In this document: positions 8,731 to 27,717 of the stretch, in pieces
Layout of the letters: the number at the start of each line of letters is the position of its first letter
Numbering within the stretch: the stretch's first letter is position 1
Assembly: GCF_000148385.1 (NCBI RefSeq)
Contig: NC_014537.1
Location: 1,740,001 to 1,772,000, forward strand
Origin: Vulcanisaeta distributa DSM 14429
GTDB lineage: Archaea > Thermoproteota > Thermoprotei > Thermoproteales > Thermocladiaceae
Direction of reading: 5' to 3'
DNA length: 32,000 nucleotides
Notes under the pieces: generated by a model
The model's input: the letters and a program-made list of their open reading frames with translations, nothing else
Databases searched by the model: none
What the model was told of the DNA's origin: nothing
Program-made: the position numbers and the translations under genes

Positions 8731-10282
8731 TACTCAATAATTTGTTTAATTGAATTGAATACTCAACATAGTCGTCATTAATAACGCGGTTCAACCTCGT
8801 TATTACACTAACTACGGCACTGACTTCCTGCTGTCCTGGATTGAAGCTCTTCGGATAAGTAATGGACTTAACCCTACGTACCGAACCAACCCTTTCCATG
8901 GATACCAACACGAATTTACTAAGGTCGATTAATTCACTTAATGAGAAGGCCCTTAACCTATTCATCAGCGCCTCACTACTATCTGCATGTGTAGTGCCTA
9001 ATACCTGGAGACCTGCATTAACACCGTGAATTAAAGCCTCGAAATGGTCCCTATCCCTCAATTCACCAATGATTAATACACCATAACCCCTATGTAGTGA
9101 CTTAAGTACCTCCTCAGTCTTGCCAATTATTGACTTAATTTTAATACTTGGTGTCGGTAGTTCCAGGGATTCATCCGTCTCATCAATGTAGATCCTCCTC
9201 AAGTTCAGAGGTAGCGCCATATCCAGTGCATTTAATAGTGTTGTTTTGCCGCTTGATGGTGGACCCATTATTAAGATGCTAAACCCATTGCGTAATGCCA
9301 CGATTAATTTACCTGCTTCTTCAGTACTTATCGAGCCTGAATTTATTAATTCATTAATTGTGAACGGCTTTTTATGAAGCCTAACATGCACGGACAAACC
9401 CTCAACCAAGGGCCACCTATCCACAGAAATTCTAAGTCTCTTGTTACTTATCATAATCGAGAACTTACCACTTGGGTTGTCCACAGAAACCCTAACACCA
9501 CTTATGTTCGCAATCTTAAGAAACTGCTTCGCAATTGCTTGAGCGTCAGCATTAACAACCCTGCAGATACCATGCTTGCTGTGGTTAATGTATATGGAGT
9601 CCTGGGTTATGAATATATCCTCAACCTCCTGATCCAGGATTACCGGCGCTAAGTCACCCAAGCCTAAACTAGCTAATACTAATGATGACCTAAGCATGGG
9701 ATCTTTAATGAATAGGGATAGGAATTTCTCCCTCGATAATAGCAACGATGATAGGGAATACTCATTATTAGGAACAACCCTACTCACTAATTCAATTAGG
9801 TAATCTAAATAATCATTGCTGACCTTATGAAGTTCCACCGTGCATTCGCTATCCTTGATTATGAGATTGAAAGATAGGGCAATGGATTTATTAATCATTG
9901 ATTTAGCATTATCAACTACTAATGAGAAATCGTCCATTGTAATGACAGAGCCCTCCTTAAGCAATTCTATTCTTAAATGAGACTTAACACTACCCTTAAT
10001 TAGTAAGTTAAGGAGTCTATTTATGAACTCCTTATTATCGCCTGACTTACGTATGGCATTAAGCAGAGATCTTAAATTTGCCAGCTCGCAGGTACTTAAT
10101 GCTTCGATTGCGTCAACATCAACCCTACCCTCCATGGCCATGTTTGAAAGATTCCTCGTGAAATCGCACTTACCAATTAATGGGCATTTAATGCAGTTCA
10201 GGACTTGATGAGAGATCACTAATCTAGTCAATAGTGATTCCTTGCCATCAGTTATGCTTAGTGAGGATGTGAGGATTCTCAT
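8705..10282 (-). CDS. FlaI/VirB11/GspE-family secretion or pilus-assembly ATPase
   Basis: Contains Walker A IMGPPSSGKTTLLNAL, the acidic box RRIYIDETDE, and LIIGELRD followed by the His-box LQVLGTTHA. At 525 aa it is the size of archaeal FlaI-like ATPases. The N-terminal region has a CIKCPLIGKC cysteine cluster. Confidence 0.8.
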   Translation of the reverse strand: MRILTSSLSITDGKESLLTRLVISHQVLNCIKCPLIGKCDFTRNLSNMAMEGRVDVDAIEALSTCELANLRSLLNAIRKSGDNKEFINRLLNLLIKGSVKSHLRIELLKEGSVITMDDFSLVVDNAKSMINKSIALSFNLIIKDSECTVELHKVSNDYLDYLIELVSRVVPNNEYSLSSLLLSREKFLSLFIKDPMLRSSLVLASLGLGDLAPVILDQEVEDIFITQDSIYINHSKHGICRVVNADAQAIAKQFLKIANISGVRVSVDNPSGKFSIMISNKRLRISVDRWPLVEGLSVHVRLHKKPFTINELINSGSISTEEAGKLIVALRNGFSILIMGPPSSGKTTLLNALDMALPLNLRRIYIDETDESLELPTPSIKIKSIIGKTEEVLKSLHRGYGVLIIGELRDRDHFEALIHGVNAGLQVLGTTHADSSEALMNRLRAFSLSELIDLSKFVLVSMERVGSVRRVKSITYPKSFNPGQQEVSAVVSVITRLNRVINDDYVEYSIQLNKLLSNGGGNEPK

Positions 10283-17826: not shown

Positions 17827-19026
17827 TTATGGCGTGTATTTAACGACTTCCATACCAAAGACGCCAGCTATGGTCTCCAACTCCCTAACTACATTCCCAG
17901 GTATTATGACGTGGTGGTTATACGGCGCCAGCCTAAGGATTACCGATGAGTTAATACCGAGGTCGAGTATTGCCTGTGTCCTGCACATCCTATCGCTCAG
18001 TAGACCTGACTCAACAACCCTGGCGCTGAATATGCCCATCCTCCTGAAATCGCTTGAGACCGAAACCCCAGTCACATCATTAAACAGCAACCTGCCAGTC
18101 AAGCCATAGTTAAACCCAGACTCAAAGTGGGTTACGACACTGGCATCCCTGATCATGTTAAGGGCTATGGTGCAATGAGCCATTGTGACCCTACTGCCCT
18201 CAATGTGGTTCGTATTCGCAATCCAACCACTATAGCCAGTCAACTCCCGAGCAATGACCATCGAGAACAAAGCCCTCAGGTCAGCCTCGCATGCCGCTAT
18301 CAACCCCTCCTCATTAAGCCTAGCCAACGCCAAACATGGCGTGACCCCATGCTTAATTAGGTATGGGAAGCAGTTAATGGCGAAGGCATCGTACTTACCG
18401 TAGAGACTACGCATGGCAGCATAAATCTTACCAACATCCCTAAGCCTCTCATCACTGACCTCAAACCTAGCCCTACCTTTAATGTAATTCATGAACTCTA
18501 CGGCCAATTTCTCATCAGCATTATTAATCATGTCCTCAAGGCTCTCCATAGGTACGGCATCAACCCTAGCCTCAAACCTATCCTCAAAGGTCCTAGCCAC
18601 ACTATCCTTAGCCCCAACACCAAGCAAGGCAACCCTAATACCGAGTATGGAGGCTATGGCCCTGGCAATCCTAAGTGCATGGTCAATACGACCCAAGTCC
18701 TTAAGATGAAGTATCCCCGAGTCAATCCCAACCTCACTAAGTAGAGCCCTTGCGTCAAGGGCCGAGGCAAGGCTATTAAGACCTGGATGAGAAACAAGCA
18801 GTAACCTACGTAGACCATAATCCTCAGCGAACTCCCTAACAAGGCGACTAACACCACCTGACAGTATTAAGGCGACGACGAATGTATTACTAATGTTCAA
18901 TCCCCTTAACTCATCAGTACTTGATACGATCCTATCAACACCCTCAATAGCGGGTAGCCTGTTCCTATGTAGTGGTGAGACGAAGCCCAGTACAACGATC
19001 CTCCTCATACACCTAATAATTCTCAA
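17827..19026 (-). CDS. L-fucose/L-arabinose-isomerase-superfamily protein (COG2407-like), function unknown
   Basis: The central block PCLALARLNEEGLIAACEADLRALFSMVIARELTG...MAHCT matches the conserved C..a...L...G...aCEaD...a..m segment of FucI-like proteins. Its start overlaps the upstream PLP-enzyme gene by 14 nt. Confidence 0.5.
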   Translation of the reverse strand: MRIIRCMRRIVVLGFVSPLHRNRLPAIEGVDRIVSSTDELRGLNISNTFVVALILSGGVSRLVREFAEDYGLRRLLLVSHPGLNSLASALDARALLSEVGIDSGILHLKDLGRIDHALRIARAIASILGIRVALLGVGAKDSVARTFEDRFEARVDAVPMESLEDMINNADEKLAVEFMNYIKGRARFEVSDERLRDVGKIYAAMRSLYGKYDAFAINCFPYLIKHGVTPCLALARLNEEGLIAACEADLRALFSMVIARELTGYSGWIANTNHIEGSRVTMAHCTIALNMIRDASVVTHFESGFNYGLTGRLLFNDVTGVSVSSDFRRMGIFSARVVESGLLSDRMCRTQAILDLGINSSVILRLAPYNHHVIIPGNVVRELETIAGVFGMEVVKYTP

Positions 19027-19969: not shown

Positions 19970-20131
19970 TAGAAGCATTAACGCTACGCCCTTAATAAGC
20001 CTTACAACCCGCGGTGAAGCCCTGTTGAAATTTAAACAGAACATTAGGTAACGTTACAATGCATCACTCTATTTGGTTCCTACTTAATCATGAAGCCAAA
20101 AACCGAACCTACCCGATTCATTTTCTCTGAG

Positions 20132-20150
20132 CACCCGAAGTTAAAAAAAG
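20132..20150 (+). promoter_or_regulatory. conserved promoter cassette copy 1 (upstream box plus TATA) of surface-protein gene 1
   Basis: The sequence is cacccgaag-ttaaaaaaag, followed by tcccgc. The TATA centre lies about 28 nt upstream of the ATG at 20173. Near-identical strings precede the two neighbouring genes. Confidence 0.6.
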
Positions 20151-20172
20151 TCCCGCGAGATAGAAGATTCTG

Positions 20173-21753
20173 ATGGTTATGGGTTTAAGAAGGAGGTGGT
20201 TGTTGGTGGTTTTGGTTGTTGCTGTTGCTGTCTTCTCCTCAGTCCTTGCTTTCCATGTGGTTAATAGGTTGGGGAGTAAAGCCGTTGGTCAGGTGGATCA
20301 GGCAGGCCTTAATACCGTAAATAAGCCAGCACTAATAGGCATTAACGTGACTATCTACGTCATCGGACCAACAACACTCACCCAAGAGTTAGCCAGCATG
20401 GGCATTAACCCATCACTAATCAAACCAATAACCATAAACCAAATAACAAACACGCAAAATAATAGTGTTGTTGTTATTGATTGGGATTCTTTATTGAGTT
20501 ATTCGGGTGGTAATTACTCAGTGATCATCGGCGTCCTGAGTACGTTATTTAAGAGGGGTGACTTGGTGATTATTCATGTATCAAGTACTGAGGAAAGCCC
20601 ACTGGTAATATGGGCCTTAGCTCGGTCATGGGCCAGGGCCTACGGCAGTAAAATAACGACCTACCCAATCATCGCCGGGCAATACCTCTCAGCCTTCGGC
20701 AGTAAAAACGCACTGGTATTCGGCAGTAGCTACAAAACTAAAGACATAATAGGCATAATAACCAACTACCAACGAATAATCAGTACATGGGGTCATGAAG
20801 TAGGGTCAAACCAGGTATCGCTTCTTAATATTTACGAACCATATGAGTTACGGAGTACGACATTAACGAATGTTGATCCTTGTCAGAAGTATGTTCAAAA
20901 TGCGAATAGCCTAGGCGGTGTCGTCTTTGATTATCAACCTTATTATAATGGCGTTGATACCGAGGCTTATAATGATGGCAATGGCACCCTCTACTACGAT
21001 ACGTGCATATTCGTTTACAACGGCAATGGGGAGCCATATATACCCGCTGGCGCTGCGCCGTATTACCCCGTGGTAACTGCTGCATGGATTGCCTATTCAC
21101 CGTCAAGCACCATGATCGGTAACAATGGCTACATAAACTACTTCATAGGCACCATGGACCATGAGCTGGGGTGGGATTATTACCAAAGCAGCACCACTGA
21201 TTCATACCTAGAGTATGAGAGTGGTGCGAACCCAATATCAACGTCATCAAATTACGTCGTGACATTCACAGTCGAGTTTGGAACTGGTGATGTGAATATC
21301 GCATTCGAGGTTGAGTATAGTGAATCACCATCATCCGTCAATATTCAGAGTGAGAATACAGCACCAACTACGAACACGGCGGCTGTTAATAACACCTGGT
21401 GGTTCTACATGGGTAGTAATCAACAGGCTAATCAGAAGTACATGGTGGCATTCGCCGAGGATGCCGATGAGTGGGTACTACCGCAGGGGCTCAATACTTA
21501 TCAAACCGCCACCTTTAACAATGAACTAGGCGTTAATCTAGTCACGTCGGTGCAGGACATACCGTGCACTGCCTGGGTCTATAACTACGAGGTTATATGG
21601 ACTCAAATCCAGTGGGTACTACAGTACAATCCAGGTTCATCACCACCAACAGGCTTCAGCGCCCAGATAGTAAATCAACAAAGCCCGTACGACATAACCG
21701 GAGTAACATCATACAGTGAATCCATACCATACATCTGCGGCGACATAACATAG
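20173..21753 (+). CDS. N-terminally anchored extracellular protein of unknown family (paralogue 1)
   Basis: A 526-aa product. MVMGLRRRW is followed by a hydrophobic helix of about 20 residues. The remainder is Asn/Ser/Thr/Tyr/Gly-rich with several N-x-S/T sequons and 4 Cys. It is clearly paralogous to the next gene. Confidence 0.8.
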   Translation: MVMGLRRRWLLVVLVVAVAVFSSVLAFHVVNRLGSKAVGQVDQAGLNTVNKPALIGINVTIYVIGPTTLTQELASMGINPSLIKPITINQITNTQNNSVVVIDWDSLLSYSGGNYSVIIGVLSTLFKRGDLVIIHVSSTEESPLVIWALARSWARAYGSKITTYPIIAGQYLSAFGSKNALVFGSSYKTKDIIGIITNYQRIISTWGHEVGSNQVSLLNIYEPYELRSTTLTNVDPCQKYVQNANSLGGVVFDYQPYYNGVDTEAYNDGNGTLYYDTCIFVYNGNGEPYIPAGAAPYYPVVTAAWIAYSPSSTMIGNNGYINYFIGTMDHELGWDYYQSSTTDSYLEYESGANPISTSSNYVVTFTVEFGTGDVNIAFEVEYSESPSSVNIQSENTAPTTNTAAVNNTWWFYMGSNQQANQKYMVAFAEDADEWVLPQGLNTYQTATFNNELGVNLVTSVQDIPCTAWVYNYEVIWTQIQWVLQYNPGSSPPTGFSAQIVNQQSPYDITGVTSYSESIPYICGDIT

Positions 21754-21784
21754 TAGCAAGCAATGCCTCATCTTCTCCTCTAAA

Positions 21785-21801
21785 TACCCAAAATTAAAAA
21801 G
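21785..21801 (+). promoter_or_regulatory. conserved promoter cassette copy 2
   Basis: The sequence is tacccaaaa-ttaaaaag, followed by tcccgc. It aligns base for base with copy 1. Confidence 0.6.
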
Positions 21802-21822
21802 TCCCGCAGAATGAAAATCCTA

Positions 21823-23490
21823 GTGGTAGTCATGGGATTAAGAATGGGACGGTTATTTGTGGTGGTTATTTCAGTAATAGTTGCCGTCGTCCTTCTCTCA
21901 GTTCTTACCTTTCATGCAGTTAATGGGTTAGGGTATAAAGTCGTTGGTCGGGTGGGTCAGGCAAGTCCTAATGCCGTAGGTGGGTCGGCATTGGTAGGTA
22001 TTAACGTGCCTATTTACGTTATTGGGCCGGCAACACTCATTCAGGGATTAATCAACGCAGGCATAAACCAATCAACAGTCAAACTAACAACCACAAACCA
22101 ACTAACAACCCTACCAAACAACAGCATGATAATCATCGACTGGTCAGCAATAAAGCCGGACATTATAATAAACGACTCAGGTGGCAAGGTCGAGGTTAAC
22201 TTAACAAGCCCAGTGATTCACGAGCTGGCTAACGCAATTGCCAGGGGTGATATTGTTGGCATATACGCAAACGCAAGCGATGAGAGCATTGTCGAATTCG
22301 TACTAGCCTATTCATGGGCTAAGGCAGTTAATAATGGGCTGATTTTAAACGGTGCAATGCTCAGGGAGGAAGTCCCAGACTATTTAATTGCTTACCCAGT
22401 AATCCCAGTGAGCGATAAAGAGCCAGTGGTGTTCGTTGCAAAGTGGGTTAGACCAAGAGGCCTGATCATAGGCCCAATATACCTAAATCAACTACCGCAG
22501 TTCATAGCAGGTATTATGAAGCCTATCCTTAGGTTGAAAGATCCATGCTATGCTGGGTATGAGCAATACATTGGCGGTTCTCAATTAAGCCCTGCACTTA
22601 GCATTTACTCAGTAGGCGACAGTACCCTCATATGGACAGCACCAATGTGGGTTGGCATATCTGATAGTGGTGTAGAGGGGTATATCGACGGCAATGGAAC
22701 GTTCTATTGGGATACATGCCTCGCCGTGGCTAATTCGATTAATGAAGAGCAGTTAGGTGGATATAGCCCAACTTATTATCTAGCGGTTCAGGTTCTTGGC
22801 TATGAGAATTATTATGAATCCTCAACTATGTATGGTAATAATGGTTATGTTGTTTCACAGCTAGGGGCTATTGATTATTATTACGGATATCAACAATACA
22901 GCGCCGGCGTAACAAACGCATTCGTTGGTGATCAAGGTGGTGGTACGTTCAGTCCTAGTTCGTGGAATCCACGAGCAATAAGTAATACGGCTAGCTATAC
23001 CGTGTCGTTTGGTGTAACCGTTACGGGAATTCCAAGCGTTAGTGTTAGCATATCATTACCCACCGGTACTAGTGAGAGTATTGGTGGTTCACTTAGCCCT
23101 GCCGAGACGACAAGTTTTAATGGCTGGACTGTGGAGGTGGCTAACATTACGTGGACCTTCAACATAGGTTATGGTGCTAACCAGCGGGATTTCCCAAATT
23201 CCTTTGAAGACCTAACACCGGCTAATATGTACTTATCAGGTTTAACATCGCAGAGCATGGCTGTGTTTAATGTTGATTTTGAGAATAATGTGGTCACGGC
23301 ACAATACCCATGCGCCTATGAGGTTCATCAAACTACCTGGGCCGATATTGAGTGGGTGGTCATTGTTACCCCGCAATCAAGCACCATAGCCAACATATCA
23401 GGTAAACCATACATATACTCACAATCTCCACCGTATTCTTACGTAACCGGTACAACAACATATGCAGTGCCCATAATATGTCCACCCTGA
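21823..23490 (+). CDS. N-terminally anchored extracellular protein of unknown family (paralogue 2)
   Basis: The product is about 555 aa. It shares with paralogue 1 the blocks INV.IYVIGP.TL, NNS..IIDW, DGNGT.Y.DTC and SSTM.GNNGY, four aligned Cys, and a Cys-containing C-terminus. The ORF-track ATG at 21811 sits only about 14 nt from the TATA centre. The GTG at 21823 (or the ATG at 21832) aligns with the start of paralogue 1. Confidence 0.8.
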   Translation: MVVMGLRMGRLFVVVISVIVAVVLLSVLTFHAVNGLGYKVVGRVGQASPNAVGGSALVGINVPIYVIGPATLIQGLINAGINQSTVKLTTTNQLTTLPNNSMIIIDWSAIKPDIIINDSGGKVEVNLTSPVIHELANAIARGDIVGIYANASDESIVEFVLAYSWAKAVNNGLILNGAMLREEVPDYLIAYPVIPVSDKEPVVFVAKWVRPRGLIIGPIYLNQLPQFIAGIMKPILRLKDPCYAGYEQYIGGSQLSPALSIYSVGDSTLIWTAPMWVGISDSGVEGYIDGNGTFYWDTCLAVANSINEEQLGGYSPTYYLAVQVLGYENYYESSTMYGNNGYVVSQLGAIDYYYGYQQYSAGVTNAFVGDQGGGTFSPSSWNPRAISNTASYTVSFGVTVTGIPSVSVSISLPTGTSESIGGSLSPAETTSFNGWTVEVANITWTFNIGYGANQRDFPNSFEDLTPANMYLSGLTSQSMAVFNVDFENNVVTAQYPCAYEVHQTTWADIEWVVIVTPQSSTIANISGKPYIYSQSPPYSYVTGTTTYAVPIICPP

Positions 23491-23566
23491 GTAAATAAAT
23501 TAGCGACATGAAGGAAAACACCAAACAGAGTAATGCAATTTTGAGGTAGCCCTTGGATTTATGGGG

Positions 23567-25231
23567 TTATGAGCATGGGCCTGCGTTGAAGTCTGCGTAA
23601 AACGTTGGTGCTGGGTAGTAATTGCTTAGGTTACTTACGTAGACCTGGTAATTAAACTCATAAACAATAGGGTTACCGTTACATGCGCCAGTTAAGGGTT
23701 CAGACGTAATACTTATTGATGATGAAATAGTGCTGATTGTCTCTGCATTGAAGGATATGCCCATTAATAGGTAGTTTAAAAATGGGTCTAACTCTGGGGG
23801 TATTGATATGCCCATGGCCTCGAGGATTGAGCCCATATCACCCGCAAGGGCAAAGAGGGGTGACGCACCCACCTGGGTGTCAATATCCCCTGCGGTAATA
23901 TATCCTGTACCGCTTGGGAATGTTACCGTGTTGAATGCCTCATTATTGAGTAGTGTTTGTATGTAGTTCATCATCACCGTTGGATCCAGCGGCTCCGCCT
24001 CAAACTCATTAACGCTAGTATTGTTATAGGCTGCGAACCAAGTCACTATCACCCACCGCACAGCCTCAACAGTGCCAATGCAGGGATCACCCAATGGCCC
24101 TATACACTCATACTCCGTATAATTAGCAATCTCAAGATAACCAACTATGGCAATGCCATAAGCACCGGCGCTGGAAATACTGGGCGCTGAGACGGCATAA
24201 TTTGCGCTCACATTTGCATATTCGCATAAAGGCGTTATTGGTACCAATGGATTTGTGAAGTAGCATTCATAATTTAATAGCGTATAGTTATTTTGGTTAC
24301 TTTGTAGTTGTAGTGTGTAGCCTGTTCCGGGTATTTCTATATTGACTCCGGTGTTTGTTGGTATTGCCAGTGATAGGGTGAAGCCAGCCCCGGTGTAGGT
24401 GGATTGACTAAGCTCAATGCCCACCCGAACATCACTCTCACCCACGTAGTCCACCTCCGACGACCGTATTACCTGAGCCACCACTGGGAATGGTGCGTCA
24501 TCCTGAGTCAGTAGTACCGTGTTAAGTTGCCAATACCAACACTCCTCCCCACCCCTGTAGGTACCACCACCAACGAATACACAACCAGCGGATGCTGTGC
24601 TTGGTGGTTGTGTTGATGGGTCTTGGAAGGATAAGGCACCCGTGGCATTCACGGTCAACCCGACCTTCACAACCCTCGTATAATTAATTACAACATCAAC
24701 AACCGAGCCCCTAGCAAGCACTGGTATTATTGGTACAGTGACAAACCCAGTGACCACGGAGGGGCCCTTGCTCGTATTCGTTATTGTGCTTATGAAGAGG
24801 ATTATTGACGGGCCAGCCATGTCCGGGGTCATCCTTAGGTAATTATCAAGTTCGAGTGCATACGCCGTGTAATTGCCCACGTCTATCACGAAATCCGTTG
24901 AATTACTCAGGTAATGCCCAACATCAACAAAACCACCAACGGAGGGGCCCGTGGCGTATATGAAGAACCTGGCGTTGGTGTGGGGGTACGGTGTGGGGGC
25001 GTTGGTGATGGCAATGTTTATGAGTGGGTACTCATTCGGTGGGCCAAAGGTAAGTATGTTTAGGGGCCAGGGTAATTCGGGATACCTAACGTACTCAACC
25101 ACATAGCCAGGTCCGACGTACTTAAGGACGGTACGGCCCATATGCGCGTAGGTGAATAATGAGGCGTAGGCAATCACCATCACGAGTAACACTATGAACA
25201 ACCACCTACGGTGTTTAAACCCCATAACCAT
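23567..25231 (-). CDS. N-terminally anchored, Cys-rich extracellular protein of unknown family (divergent third member)
   Basis: A 554-aa product. MVMGFKHRRW plus a hydrophobic helix are homologous to paralogue 1 at nucleotide level. The mature part is Asn/Thr/Tyr/Gly/Val-rich with many sequons and about 11 Cys, and shows only weak echoes of paralogues 1 and 2 (FIYATGP, NST..VID). Confidence 0.8.
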   Translation of the reverse strand: MVMGFKHRRWLFIVLLVMVIAYASLFTYAHMGRTVLKYVGPGYVVEYVRYPELPWPLNILTFGPPNEYPLINIAITNAPTPYPHTNARFFIYATGPSVGGFVDVGHYLSNSTDFVIDVGNYTAYALELDNYLRMTPDMAGPSIILFISTITNTSKGPSVVTGFVTVPIIPVLARGSVVDVVINYTRVVKVGLTVNATGALSFQDPSTQPPSTASAGCVFVGGGTYRGGEECWYWQLNTVLLTQDDAPFPVVAQVIRSSEVDYVGESDVRVGIELSQSTYTGAGFTLSLAIPTNTGVNIEIPGTGYTLQLQSNQNNYTLLNYECYFTNPLVPITPLCEYANVSANYAVSAPSISSAGAYGIAIVGYLEIANYTEYECIGPLGDPCIGTVEAVRWVIVTWFAAYNNTSVNEFEAEPLDPTVMMNYIQTLLNNEAFNTVTFPSGTGYITAGDIDTQVGASPLFALAGDMGSILEAMGISIPPELDPFLNYLLMGISFNAETISTISSSISITSEPLTGACNGNPIVYEFNYQVYVSNLSNYYPAPTFYADFNAGPCS

Positions 25232-25254
25232 ATAAAATCCCTCACTTCATGGGG

Positions 25255-25271
25255 CTTTTTTACTTTGGGTG
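25255..25271 (-). promoter_or_regulatory. conserved promoter cassette copy 3
   Basis: The minus strand reads cacccaaag-taaaaaag, followed by cccc. The TATA centre lies about 28 nt upstream of the ATG at 25231. Confidence 0.6.
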
Positions 25272-25436
25272 TTCAGTTAAAGTGAGTCGAGCATTTATTG
25301 CTTGGTTCTGCTTCATGTGATTGAGCACCTGTTGATTCGCCCTTAAAACATACACGGCAATGAACTAAGCAAACACAAAGACAACAAGGCATAAATCAAG
25401 GAAAGGAAACACGTCAAGCAAGACCATGAAACACCA

Positions 25437-25456: not shown

Positions 25457-25533
25457 TGGTGGACCGGCCGGGATTTGAACCCGGGATCTCCCGCGTGCGA
25501 GGCGGGCATCCTTCCAGGCTAGACTACCGGCCC
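25457..25533 (-). tRNA. tRNA-Ala (anticodon CGC), with CCA encoded
   Basis: The minus strand reads GGGCCGGTAGTCTAGCCTGGAAGGATGCCCGCCTCGCACGCGGGAGATCCCGGGTTCAAATCCCGGCCGGTCCACCA. This folds by hand into a cloverleaf with a 7-bp acceptor stem containing the G3:U70 alanine identity pair, a 5-bp anticodon stem CCCGC/GCGGG with loop CT-CGC-AC, T arm CCGGG-TTCAAAT-CCCGG, and discriminator A73. No intron is present. Confidence 0.95.
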
Positions 25534-26305: not shown

Positions 26306-27211
26306 ATGACAAGTGACGCCAAAGGTAAAAGACCGAGTAATGCGGGCATAAGTGGTAGGAGGAGGTTCCTGACCATGCTACTAACCGCCGGTGCTGCTGC
26401 AATGCTCGCAAGCATGTTACCCAATGTAATAACTAATAACGGCAAAAACACTGAAAGTACCTTCGCCAATAACTCCGTAACCTCTTCTGCAGTTAATGAA
26501 TCCAGGTTAAATCAATCAATCACTAATGAGTCCGCGGTCAACATAACCGTACCAACCACATCACACATATCGGCCATTAAGACCTTCCCCACAAACAGGA
26601 CGCAGCAGGTAAACGTCAGTTCAGTTTCTGTAGGCAATGCCGTAAATAACACGGGTAGTACCAGTAATGTTACTAACGTAAGTCTAACGCCACTGGATGA
26701 CTGGTATATCGTACAAATAGGGCCCACACCTCAGGTAAATGTCGGCAGTTATACGCTGGTAATTGATGGGCTTGTGAATAATCCATTGAGCCTGACCTAC
26801 CCTGAGTTAACGAGTATGCCTACTAAAACGATCCTAGACACAATACAGTGCGTTTCAGATCCGTACTTCCTAAGGGCAGTAGTTGAGTGGACTGGCGTGC
26901 CATTGAAGTACGTGTTGAATCTTGCAGGTATCCAATCAAGTGCGACTAAGGTAATACTCTATGGGGCTGATGAGTACACAAGTGATTTACCGTTGTGGAA
27001 GGCAATGGAGGATGACACACTGATCGCATTCATGGCTAATGGACAACCACTATTAAGGACCCACGGTTATCCCGTAAGATTGGTCGTACCTAGGTGGTGG
27101 GGCTATAAATACGTGAAATGGCTGGTTAAGATCACGGTGACTAACGAGAATTACCTGGGCTATTGGGAGTCGAGGGGTTACCCAGACGTTGCTAAGAAGA
27201 ACGGTGATTAA
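26306..27211 (+). CDS. Tat-signal molybdopterin-binding oxidoreductase domain protein (sulfite oxidase / YedY-MsrP superfamily)
   Basis: Has the twin-arginine motif SGRRRFLTMLLTAGAAAM and then about 85 aa of Asn/Ser/Thr-rich linker. The Mo-domain blocks follow: TIQCVSDPY...VEWTGVPLKYVL and GYPVRLVVPRWWGYKYVKWLVKI. Confidence 0.75.
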   Translation: MTSDAKGKRPSNAGISGRRRFLTMLLTAGAAAMLASMLPNVITNNGKNTESTFANNSVTSSAVNESRLNQSITNESAVNITVPTTSHISAIKTFPTNRTQQVNVSSVSVGNAVNNTGSTSNVTNVSLTPLDDWYIVQIGPTPQVNVGSYTLVIDGLVNNPLSLTYPELTSMPTKTILDTIQCVSDPYFLRAVVEWTGVPLKYVLNLAGIQSSATKVILYGADEYTSDLPLWKAMEDDTLIAFMANGQPLLRTHGYPVRLVVPRWWGYKYVKWLVKITVTNENYLGYWESRGYPDVAKKNGD

Positions 27212-27213
27212 TA

Positions 27214-27717
27214 ATGCAGTCCCTACGTATTGGCGATCTACGCATCAATAAGACCGCACTGATATACCCTGGTATTCTAACGATGGTCTTAGCGATGTAT
27301 CTCAAGTCATGGATCATCGCAGTACCCGGTATTGCAATGGCGGTTTACCCAGCCCTTAGCATCAATATTTCCGACTCAATATACTCACCGAGTTTTCAAA
27401 GGAGGACTGCATGGATATTACTTGCGCTATCCATTGCCGAGGCAATTACGGGGTTTGGCGCTGGGCCCACGACTTCGTCCATAGTGTACTCCCTAACGTT
27501 CGGCACCTTGACGAGAGGGCTAGCTCTTCAATTGCACATACTATTAATCGCACCGCTATCGCTCTTCTTCATACTACATATAGCCAGTGGCATTGGTCTC
27601 GCATTAATAAGGAGGAGGATTACCTGGAAACCACTTTACACCTACGTCATACTCTCAATGCTCATAGCACTCTTCACAATCACCATGTACCTCTACAGCT
27701 TATTAGTAATTATTTAA
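27214..27717 (+). CDS. small polytopic membrane protein, candidate haem-b/electron-transfer partner of the Mo enzyme
   Basis: The 167-aa product starts 2 nt after the upstream stop and has about 5 TM helices. Its only two His lie in one helix with H-x13-H spacing (LHILLIAPLSLFFILHI). The function is inferred. Confidence 0.55.
   Translation: MQSLRIGDLRINKTALIYPGILTMVLAMYLKSWIIAVPGIAMAVYPALSINISDSIYSPSFQRRTAWILLALSIAEAITGFGAGPTTSSIVYSLTFGTLTRGLALQLHILLIAPLSLFFILHIASGIGLALIRRRITWKPLYTYVILSMLIALFTITMYLYSLLVII

Follow-up and report, generated by a model that had tools for sequence, protein, structure and literature searches.

Introduction

The Vlp, Vsp, and VlhA proteins of Mycoplasma are variable surface lipoproteins encoded by multigene families in which a conserved promoter, 5′ region, and signal sequence precede divergent bodies. 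In Sulfolobus, the membrane-anchored sugar-binding proteins that serve as bindosome substrates are N-terminally tethered extracellular glycoproteins of a size similar to those described below, and related N-termini recur across otherwise different proteins. Orphan envelope proteins are, moreover, common in Crenarchaeota. Here we describe three adjacent genes of Vulcanisaeta distributa DSM 14429 lying in a stretch of 32,000 nucleotides (contig NC_014537.1, positions 1,740,001 to 1,772,000; hereafter the window), in which ectodomains of different families are joined to one promoter and anchor module. We put at roughly 0.55 the probability that these are three separately promoted genes for single-pass, N-terminally anchored exported proteins, which belong to two uncharacterized lineage-restricted families, are co-regulated, and evolve by recombination. 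The structural description of the genes and of their module is, as such, highly probable.

The compartment that these proteins would occupy in Thermoproteales, between membrane and S-layer, has only just been described structurally. The S-layer protein PySLP is about 2,600 aa long and has tandem Ig-like domains, a signal peptide that is cleaved off, and, at the C-terminus, a transmembrane anchor whose basic tail ends in Lys. The lattice lies 37 nm above the membrane, and the protein, present as one conserved copy, has homologues in Vulcanisaeta, Caldivirga, and Thermocladium (bioRxiv 10.64898/2026.08.21.746120).

A 5′ module shared by the three genes

The three open reading frames (ORFs) are intact and lie side by side, two in tandem on the plus strand and the third convergent on the minus strand, just as the original prediction, made from the DNA letters, had described them. 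They are numbered genes 1 to 3, and L-numbers denote homologous loci from other assemblies.

20173 to 21753, plus strand: gene 1, family A, 526 aa
21823 to 23490, plus strand: gene 2, family A, second subfamily (Vdis_1037-like), with a gene-1-like architecture; 555 aa from the GTG at 21823 or 552 aa from the ATG at 21832
23567 to 25231, minus strand: gene 3, family B, 554 aa

Gene 2 was listed as running from ATG 21811 to 23490 (559 aa). Because a conserved A-rich box at 21787-21805 extends to this listed ATG, the true start is more likely GTG 21823 (MVVMGLRMGR, 555 aa) or ATG 21832 (552 aa). All three genes have a 5′ module in common, which consists of about 90 nt of promoter and the first codons, specifying MVMG[LF][RK]..RW. 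Its upstream parts are located as follows.

20083 to 20172, plus strand: upstream part of the gene 1 module, from a motif search and alignment to the regions upstream of genes 2 and 3
from 20138, plus strand: A-rich TATA-like box of gene 1, AAGTTAAAAAAAG, ending 25 nt before the ATG and preceded by TTCA-N7-TGAG and CACCCGAAG
21770 to 21822, plus strand: upstream part of the gene 2 module, from an exact motif match and alignment, with the box CCCAAAATTAAAAAGTCCC at 21787-21805
25232 to 25321, minus strand: upstream part of the gene 3 module, with the box CCCAAAGTAAAAAAGCCCC at 25251-25269, ending 24 nt before the ATG

Three independent occurrences of the motif CCCRAARTWAAAAARNCCC were found in the 32-kb window, each directly 5′ of one of the three genes; 0.39 were expected, and the observed three were reached by no shuffle. 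Genes 1 and 3 are 60-71% identical in DNA from about −90 to +30 and then drop to about 42%, the random level, in their bodies. Across copies, 21-27 nt separate the A-rich box from the start codon, a spacing expected in crenarchaeal promoters for the TATA box of a leaderless mRNA. When about 200 kb of Vulcanisaeta DNA was searched with the strict 10-mer box, five of the seven matches lay 21-27 nt before family A or B starts, and thus the box is not a generic promoter. Most module copies carry, 5′ of the A-rich box, an inverted repeat resembling TTCA-N7-TGAA (20110-20135 and, on the minus strand, 25272-25295 in the window; also in L004, L015, and L023), which may be a candidate regulator site. 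The A-run within the box ranges from 5 to 8 A between copies and measures 7 versus 6 A in the L023 and L024 alleles, whose proteins are 98.9% identical; such length differences are no evidence of expression switching.

Module copies were further compared in other genomes. In L004 (Vulcanisaeta sp. JCM 16159), a family B gene lies directly upstream of a family A gene; across the start codon the two modules agree at 98% of positions, and over the 60 nt before it at 71%, with unrelated bodies, whereas they are only 60-70% identical to the modules of their window orthologues. Copies of the 5′ module from one genome resemble each other more closely than do those of orthologues. When metagenomes were scanned for the module pattern, a third family, C, was also found, an unrelated 285-aa anchored protein rich in N, S, and T (MVMGLKVRWLILVV...), which matched nothing in Pfam.

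L023, 87 to 974, and L024, 62 to 948 (metagenome ERZ1669250/ERZ1669251): family C genes
L008, about 8893 to 9590 (Vulcanisaeta sp. JCM 14467): family C gene that has the same promoter and immediately precedes a family A gene

Clusters of module genes recur, being A-A-B in the window, B-A in L004, and C-A...A in L008. Since the module was found on families A, B, and C, unrelated ectodomains are joined to one promoter and anchor module, and the genes that carry it tend to cluster. In the JCM draft assemblies, at L004 8131-9879 and 10001-11462 and at L008 9856-10969, family A or B genes are each split into two ORFs, in which sequencing indels and genuine pseudogenes are indistinguishable.

Two protein families behind one N-terminus

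Genes 1 and 2 share 33% identity over their full length (E = 1e-52); the two had been called paralogues, and this assignment holds, with all four of the motif blocks quoted for the pair present. We term them family A. Four aligned Cys residues had also been claimed: three align, but the first, which lies in a DPC motif in both proteins, is offset. All full-length family A members that were checked have the predicted C-terminal Cys, 2-10 residues from the end. The resemblance of gene 3 to genes 1 and 2 is limited to the first ~40 residues, and hhalign of the family A and family B profiles aligned the anchor alone, with probabilities of 37% and 12%. Judged by these comparisons, gene 3 is a member of a different family, B, unrelated to family A. 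Both this separate standing of gene 3 and the extension of the shared N-terminus into a shared promoter go beyond the original prediction.

The proteins begin with MVMGLRRRW (gene 1), (MVV)MGLRMGR (gene 2), and MVMGFKHRRW (gene 3), and the strongest hydrophobic segment of each follows directly. The proposed basic N-terminus with a single N-terminal hydrophobic helix is therefore confirmed, with a few weaker 19-residue windows above the Kyte-Doolittle cut-off at residue 55 of gene 2 and at about residues 160-164 of gene 3. Gene 1 and gene 3 would be organized as follows.

gene 1, aa ~9-29: predicted signal anchor, followed by a variable linker of low conservation (aa 30-56)
gene 1, aa 57-157 (20341 to 20643, plus strand): small α/β (β-α repeat) domain predicted by AlphaFold2
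gene 1, after aa 157: β-rich, Cys-containing body with the loop DGNGTLYYDTC at aa 268-278 and one Cys placed 5 residues before the end
gene 3, aa ~10-28: predicted signal anchor, followed by a mostly β ectodomain with 8 Cys and PCS at the C-terminus

For gene 1, AlphaFold2 gave a predicted local distance difference test score (pLDDT) of 42 overall, 70-87 at residues 57-157, and below 50 elsewhere, with a helix predicted at residues 2-30; the gene 3 model (pLDDT 29) was unusable. The 57-157 domain, in which most invariant motifs of the N-terminal part fall, contains the conserved blocks IYV[IV]GP, S[VI][VI][VI]IDW, GD[LI]V.I, and LA..WA[RK]A, and its invariant columns span I61-A156. Foldseek returned only generic α/β folds from the PDB (best E = 0.13) and noise-level hits from BFVD (TM ≤ 0.17). 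The DGNGT.YYD.C loop of family A presumably resembles acidic Ca-binding loops.

The composition is charge-poor and rich in N, S, T, and Y, in line with what had been read from the sequence, and is of the kind found in secreted glycoproteins of Crenarchaeota; the earlier reading of the genes as coding for anchored proteins of extracellular glycoprotein type is supported. The residues D, E, K, and R make up 11.2, 10.5, and 10.6% of genes 1, 2, and 3 versus 24.0% in 13 other window ORFs, N+S+T+Y is strongly enriched, and the bodies are rich in N, S, T, Y, G, and V. Cys numbers are 4, 4, and 8, all even; the first Cys stands at residue 237, 242, and 217, respectively, and none lies in or just after the hydrophobic segment, so that a lipobox is absent. 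The C-termini (...ICGDIT, ...IICPP, and ...AGPCS) have no hydrophobic segment near them. The repeated N-x-S/T sequons that had been taken as a glycoprotein feature are present (5, 8, and 11, against a background of 0.27 per 100 aa), but against shuffled versions of each protein, enrichment is seen in gene 3 alone (11 versus 5.5, P = 0.014; gene 1, 5 versus 7.2; gene 2, 8 versus 5.3), and sequon density mostly follows from composition. Four of 30 members have an RR-x-hydrophobic-hydrophobic motif, which gene 2 and most orthologues lack; the proteins were rejected as twin-arginine translocation (Tat) substrates because this motif is not conserved.

Known families were searched widely. The three proteins had no significant or consistent match in Pfam, NCBIfam, PHROGs, or PADLOC; nothing consistent emerged when 11 family A and 22 family B members were scanned against Pfam and the family B members also against NCBIfam; and the PDB sequences, searched with individual proteins and profiles of both families, yielded no match. 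The view that the proteins fit no known family is thus upheld, and no characterized family was found that matches all three over their full length. By homology, they belong to existing but uncharacterized hypothetical-protein families. VMUT_0442 and Vdis_1037 (family A) and PAE1478 and Pogu_1189 (family B) are homologues of matching length and architecture annotated as hypothetical, and a literature search by these four locus tags found no paper naming them.

Distribution and conservation

The closest homologues of the window proteins come from Vulcanisaeta souniana (87-89% identity). In a search of 5.8 billion proteins, family A had few members, whether queried by sequence or by profile. A genome scan placed it in Vulcanisaeta species, Caldivirga sp. 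MU80 (at least four loci), and Thermocladium (two loci), and also in one Thermoproteus and one Caldisphaera metagenome-assembled genome (MAG), assignments that need caution; the best relatives of gene 2 are from Thermocladium, a Thermoproteus MAG, and other Vulcanisaeta. Close relatives of family B are confined to Vulcanisaeta. An exhaustive HMMER search for it gave 34 cluster representatives, including full-length proteins of 500-577 aa with a matching N-terminal anchor, and its distant members comprise Pyrobaculum PAE1478 and Pogu_1189 and several Desulfurococcales MAG proteins, annotated as hypothetical throughout.

In the deep alignment of family B, C217, C231, C323, and C336 are invariant, and residues conserved at ≥85% are P, G, C, Y, W, and A only, which leaves no catalytic constellation. 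Because no charged or nucleophilic residue is conserved, a structural or binding role is suggested for family B. The ratio of nonsynonymous to synonymous substitution (dN/dS) was 0.27 for gene 3 versus V. souniana (dS 0.23), 0.17 for gene 3 versus L015, and 0.14 for gene 1 versus VMUT_0442 (dS saturated). These values of 0.14-0.27 indicate that the window genes are under purifying selection and are not decaying, and they rule out a pseudogene reading of the window copies, a fate that the original prediction had named as one that would make the cluster ordinary.

Mosaic paralogues and shifting positions

Family A paralogues of Caldivirga sp. MU80 on different contigs (L003 9908-11680, L005 241-1905, and L006 9932-11515) are mosaics. 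When gene pairs were compared in 40-codon blocks, the proportion of synonymous differences (pS) within a single pair ranged from 0.00-0.07 in some blocks to 0.85-0.98 in others; stretches with 93-96% nucleotide identity alternate with saturated ones, and different partners share different blocks. This pattern indicates segmental gene conversion, not uneven constraint.

The neighborhoods of the homologues differ in every genome examined. VMUT_0442 stands alone between alcohol dehydrogenase and NDK genes; the V. souniana ortholog of gene 3 has aldehyde dehydrogenase genes on both sides and no family A gene beside it; a metagenomic ortholog is flanked by pyruvate:ferredoxin oxidoreductase genes and a PaREP1 gene; and PAE1478 and Pogu_1189 are stand-alone genes. 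All-against-all ORF clustering of 14 loci and the window found no recurrent partner except the families themselves. The V. souniana ortholog (L018 9975-11641, GCA_014646555.1; also L019) has lost 5 nt after about codon 7 and is interrupted by an in-frame stop near codon 452 (DIDT*VGASP), beyond which the frame is still conserved; the disrupted gene models agree in the NCBI assembly and in a Logan read-run assembly. Since the downstream sequence is still in frame, this copy appears to have been disrupted recently. The differing neighborhoods and the V. souniana disruption together support the accessory status that had been proposed for the cluster, and the adjoining tRNA gene, which had been mentioned alongside it, adds nothing to that support.

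PaREP1 or PaRep2a genes were observed near family B both in a metagenome contig of Vulcanisaeta type and in Pyrobaculum (L015 11824-12060, L016 2046-2282, L017 1909-2145, L022 630-1118, and L021 15792-15935), as would fit variable genome regions. At L015 and L016, a MoxR-DUF58 cluster follows the PaREP1 neighbor.

In the window, the GC content of the cluster is not distinctive. The flanks hold housekeeping genes, namely those for tRNA-guanine transglycosylase, PAC2, Hsp20, methionyl-tRNA synthetase (MetRS), dCTP deaminase, a pyridoxal phosphate (PLP)-dependent enzyme, a peroxiredoxin, a molybdopterin oxidoreductase, and a phosphoadenosine phosphosulfate (PAPS) reductase-like protein. The following neighbors were recorded.

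17827 to 19026, minus strand: 399-aa ORF between the dCTP deaminase and PLP-dependent enzyme genes, with no Pfam match at E ≤ 0.001
25457 to 25533, minus strand: tRNA-Ala(CGC), 225 nt from the start of gene 3
26306 to 27211, plus strand: molybdopterin oxidoreductase (sulfite-oxidase type domain) whose N-terminus, RRRFL, is twin-arginine-like and whose linker, about 100 aa long, is dense in N-x-S/T sequons (about 10), probably a further exported glycoprotein
27214 to 27717, plus strand: gene for a multi-helix membrane protein, next after the preceding one

Alternative explanations

Vulcanisaeta, Caldivirga, Thermocladium, and Caldisphaera are acidophilic heterotrophs, and crenarchaeal extracellular enzymes are often orphans in sequence. 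The proteins might therefore be novel membrane-tethered extracellular hydrolases, of the acid protease or glycosidase type, that digest polymers in hot acidic springs; the distribution of family A, centered on the first three genera plus the Caldisphaera MAG, would suit this, as would its compact α/β domain and its invariant Asp, Ser, Asn, and Thr residues. However, no peptidase or glycosidase model, thermopsin (A5) included, matched at E ≤ 1 among the three proteins and the 11 family A and 22 family B members, family A has no invariant His or Glu, and family B is without any conserved polar or charged residue. Mosaic, multi-copy, position-shifting genes that are lost in a sister species are also atypical of nutritional enzymes, and we regard hydrolases as improbable. 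N-anchored, glycoprotein-like ectodomains of about 500 aa, in which the α/β domain of family A could form one lobe, are likewise what substrate-binding receptors handing solutes to ABC transporters would look like, after the manner of the Sulfolobus sugar-binding proteins. Yet no solute-binding Pfam model matched the three proteins or the family members, and no permease or ATPase gene is adjacent in the window or at about 20 homologous loci. The class III signal motif [KRHDE][GA][ALIFQMVED][ILMVTAS]x3 is absent from genes 1, 2, and 3 and was found in 3 of 30 members, which is no conservation. This explanation is largely refuted by its context and carries very little weight.

Pilus loci of Thermoproteales code for proteins that evolve fast, are rich in Cys, and have hydrophobic N-termini, among them large putative adhesins (PMC4858521), and the likeness to such proteins would speak for type IV pilus-associated adhesins or minor pilins. 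The missing conservation of a class III cleavage motif stands against it, as does the lack of any pilus ATPase, TadC, or pilin gene in the window flanks or at any homologous locus; no pilin Pfam model matched the three proteins or the family members beyond a single Arch_flagellin match in one member (E = 0.27), and a pilus role is most unlikely. The composition does resemble that of crenarchaeal envelope glycoproteins, as S-layer components or anchors would require, but the Thermoproteales S-layer protein, which has a Vulcanisaeta homologue, is ~2,600 aa long, rich in Ig domains, and anchored by its own C-terminus. The genes described here are instead patchy, multi-copy, anchored at the opposite end, and disrupted in V. 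souniana, and S-layer and Ig-type Pfam models matched neither the three proteins nor the family members; an S-layer function is scarcely credible. Hardly more plausible is that the cluster represents cargo of a virus or mobile element integrated at tRNA-Ala. It lies 225 nt from that gene, and positions differ between genomes, but no att-like repeat of the tRNA was found around the cluster, the 10 flanking ORFs scanned hold no integrase or mobile-element gene, the GC content is unremarkable, and no relatives were found in IMG/VR contigs, phage records (by tblastn), PHROGs, or BFVD.

A proposed model of anchored, recombining envelope proteins

We favor the explanation that the three genes encode co-regulated, N-anchored exported proteins diversified by recombination. 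The proteins would adopt a type II (N-in/C-out) topology, with the basic N-terminus in the cytoplasm and the helix of about 20 residues as an uncleaved anchor, and would be inserted into the membrane by the Sec/YidC route. In family A, the variable linker (aa 30-56) would space the ectodomain from the membrane. The ectodomains would be N-glycosylated and disulfide-bonded, as the even Cys counts and the invariant Cys pairs of family B suggest, and would fill the wide space between the membrane and the tall S-layer canopy. Through the shared promoter the genes would form one co-regulated set (a regulon), probably transcribed as leaderless mRNAs, and recombination between copies would homogenize the 5′ module and shuffle body segments.

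With regard to function, a core structural, transport, or catalytic role is unlikely for these proteins. Their occurrence in several copies, mosaicism, shifting positions, restriction to certain lineages, and loss in a sister species best fit an accessory part in binding or recognition at the envelope. We tentatively suggest non-enzymatic proteins engaged in adhesion or in contacts with viruses, ectosymbionts, or neighboring cells, a role that is possible rather than probable. Vulcanisaeta, Caldivirga, and Thermocladium have been proposed as hosts of Nanoarchaeota-type ectosymbionts (PMC6142677); a link of the family A proteins to Nanoarchaeota or viruses as partners is speculative.

Several points weigh against the favored explanation. 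The expression, localization, glycosylation, and topology of the three proteins are predictions from sequence, and the supposed anchor may instead belong to a signal peptide that has a long h-region and is cleaved. Mosaicism was seen in Caldivirga and not in the window, where genes 1 and 2 differ throughout (pS 0.48-0.91). Within-genome likeness of the module is clear only for adjacent genes in one other genome (L004), where it could reflect one recent local duplication and not ongoing conversion. The sequon density of genes 1 and 2 does not exceed compositional expectation. Finally, the conservation argument against catalysis does not extend to family A, which has invariant Asp, Ser, Asn, and Thr residues (e.g., D103, D130, D268, D276, S98, and S116) that are possibly catalytic or metal-binding.

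What is new here is a homogenized promoter and anchor module across three unrelated families, together with mosaic paralogues. The genes define at least two, and probably three, candidate protein families of the space between membrane and S-layer, without a known fold. They also provide a concrete cis-element, the A-rich box after a TTCA-N7-TGAA-like element, which should pick out the co-regulated set in any Vulcanisaeta genome. Going further, one may picture an archaeal counterpart of the bacterial variable-surface-protein systems, in which the ectodomains of families A, B, and C, and possibly more, ride on one recombination-uniform cassette, body segments are exchanged between dispersed paralogues, and the A tract possibly modulates expression, so that a diversified surface faces viruses or Nanoarchaeota-type ectosymbionts. 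We consider this picture doubtful. If recombination-driven diversification is true, it would be an archaeal case of surface variation, which has so far been documented mainly in host-associated bacteria and parasites, and it would point to surface molecules contacted by the viruses or ectosymbionts of these archaea; if not, the proteins would be ordinary lineage-specific hypothetical envelope proteins.

Comparison with known systems

The Sulfolobus sugar-binding proteins resemble the present proteins in N-tethering, in size, and in having related N-termini on otherwise differing proteins. They differ in their class III signals, matches to solute-binding proteins, and adjoining ABC transporter genes, none of which was found here. 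PySLP shares the organisms and the compartment, and both it and the present proteins are exported, Cys-rich, probably glycosylated envelope proteins; the description of PySLP nevertheless sets the latter apart, since they are about 540 aa long (526-555), N-anchored, multi-copy, and patchy.

By gene-family architecture, the closest analogue is the Mycoplasma Vlp/Vsp type, a likeness that concerns architecture only and implies no membership. The Mycoplasma proteins are lipoprotein-anchored, whereas an archaeal signal anchor without a lipobox is predicted here; their on/off switch is demonstrated, whereas any switching here would be conjectural, and no invertible element or recombinase lies near the window genes. 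The host is also a free-living hot-spring archaeon, in which the selective agent would be viruses, ectosymbionts, or neighbors and not an immune system. As in Vlp, Vsp, and VlhA, on the other hand, a conserved promoter and signal sequence precede divergent or unrelated bodies, the genes are multi-copy and either clustered or dispersed, paralogues are mosaic by recombination (here those of Caldivirga MU80, not genes 1 and 2), and the promoter contains a homopolymeric A tract of copy-dependent length, 5-8 A in the copies described here.

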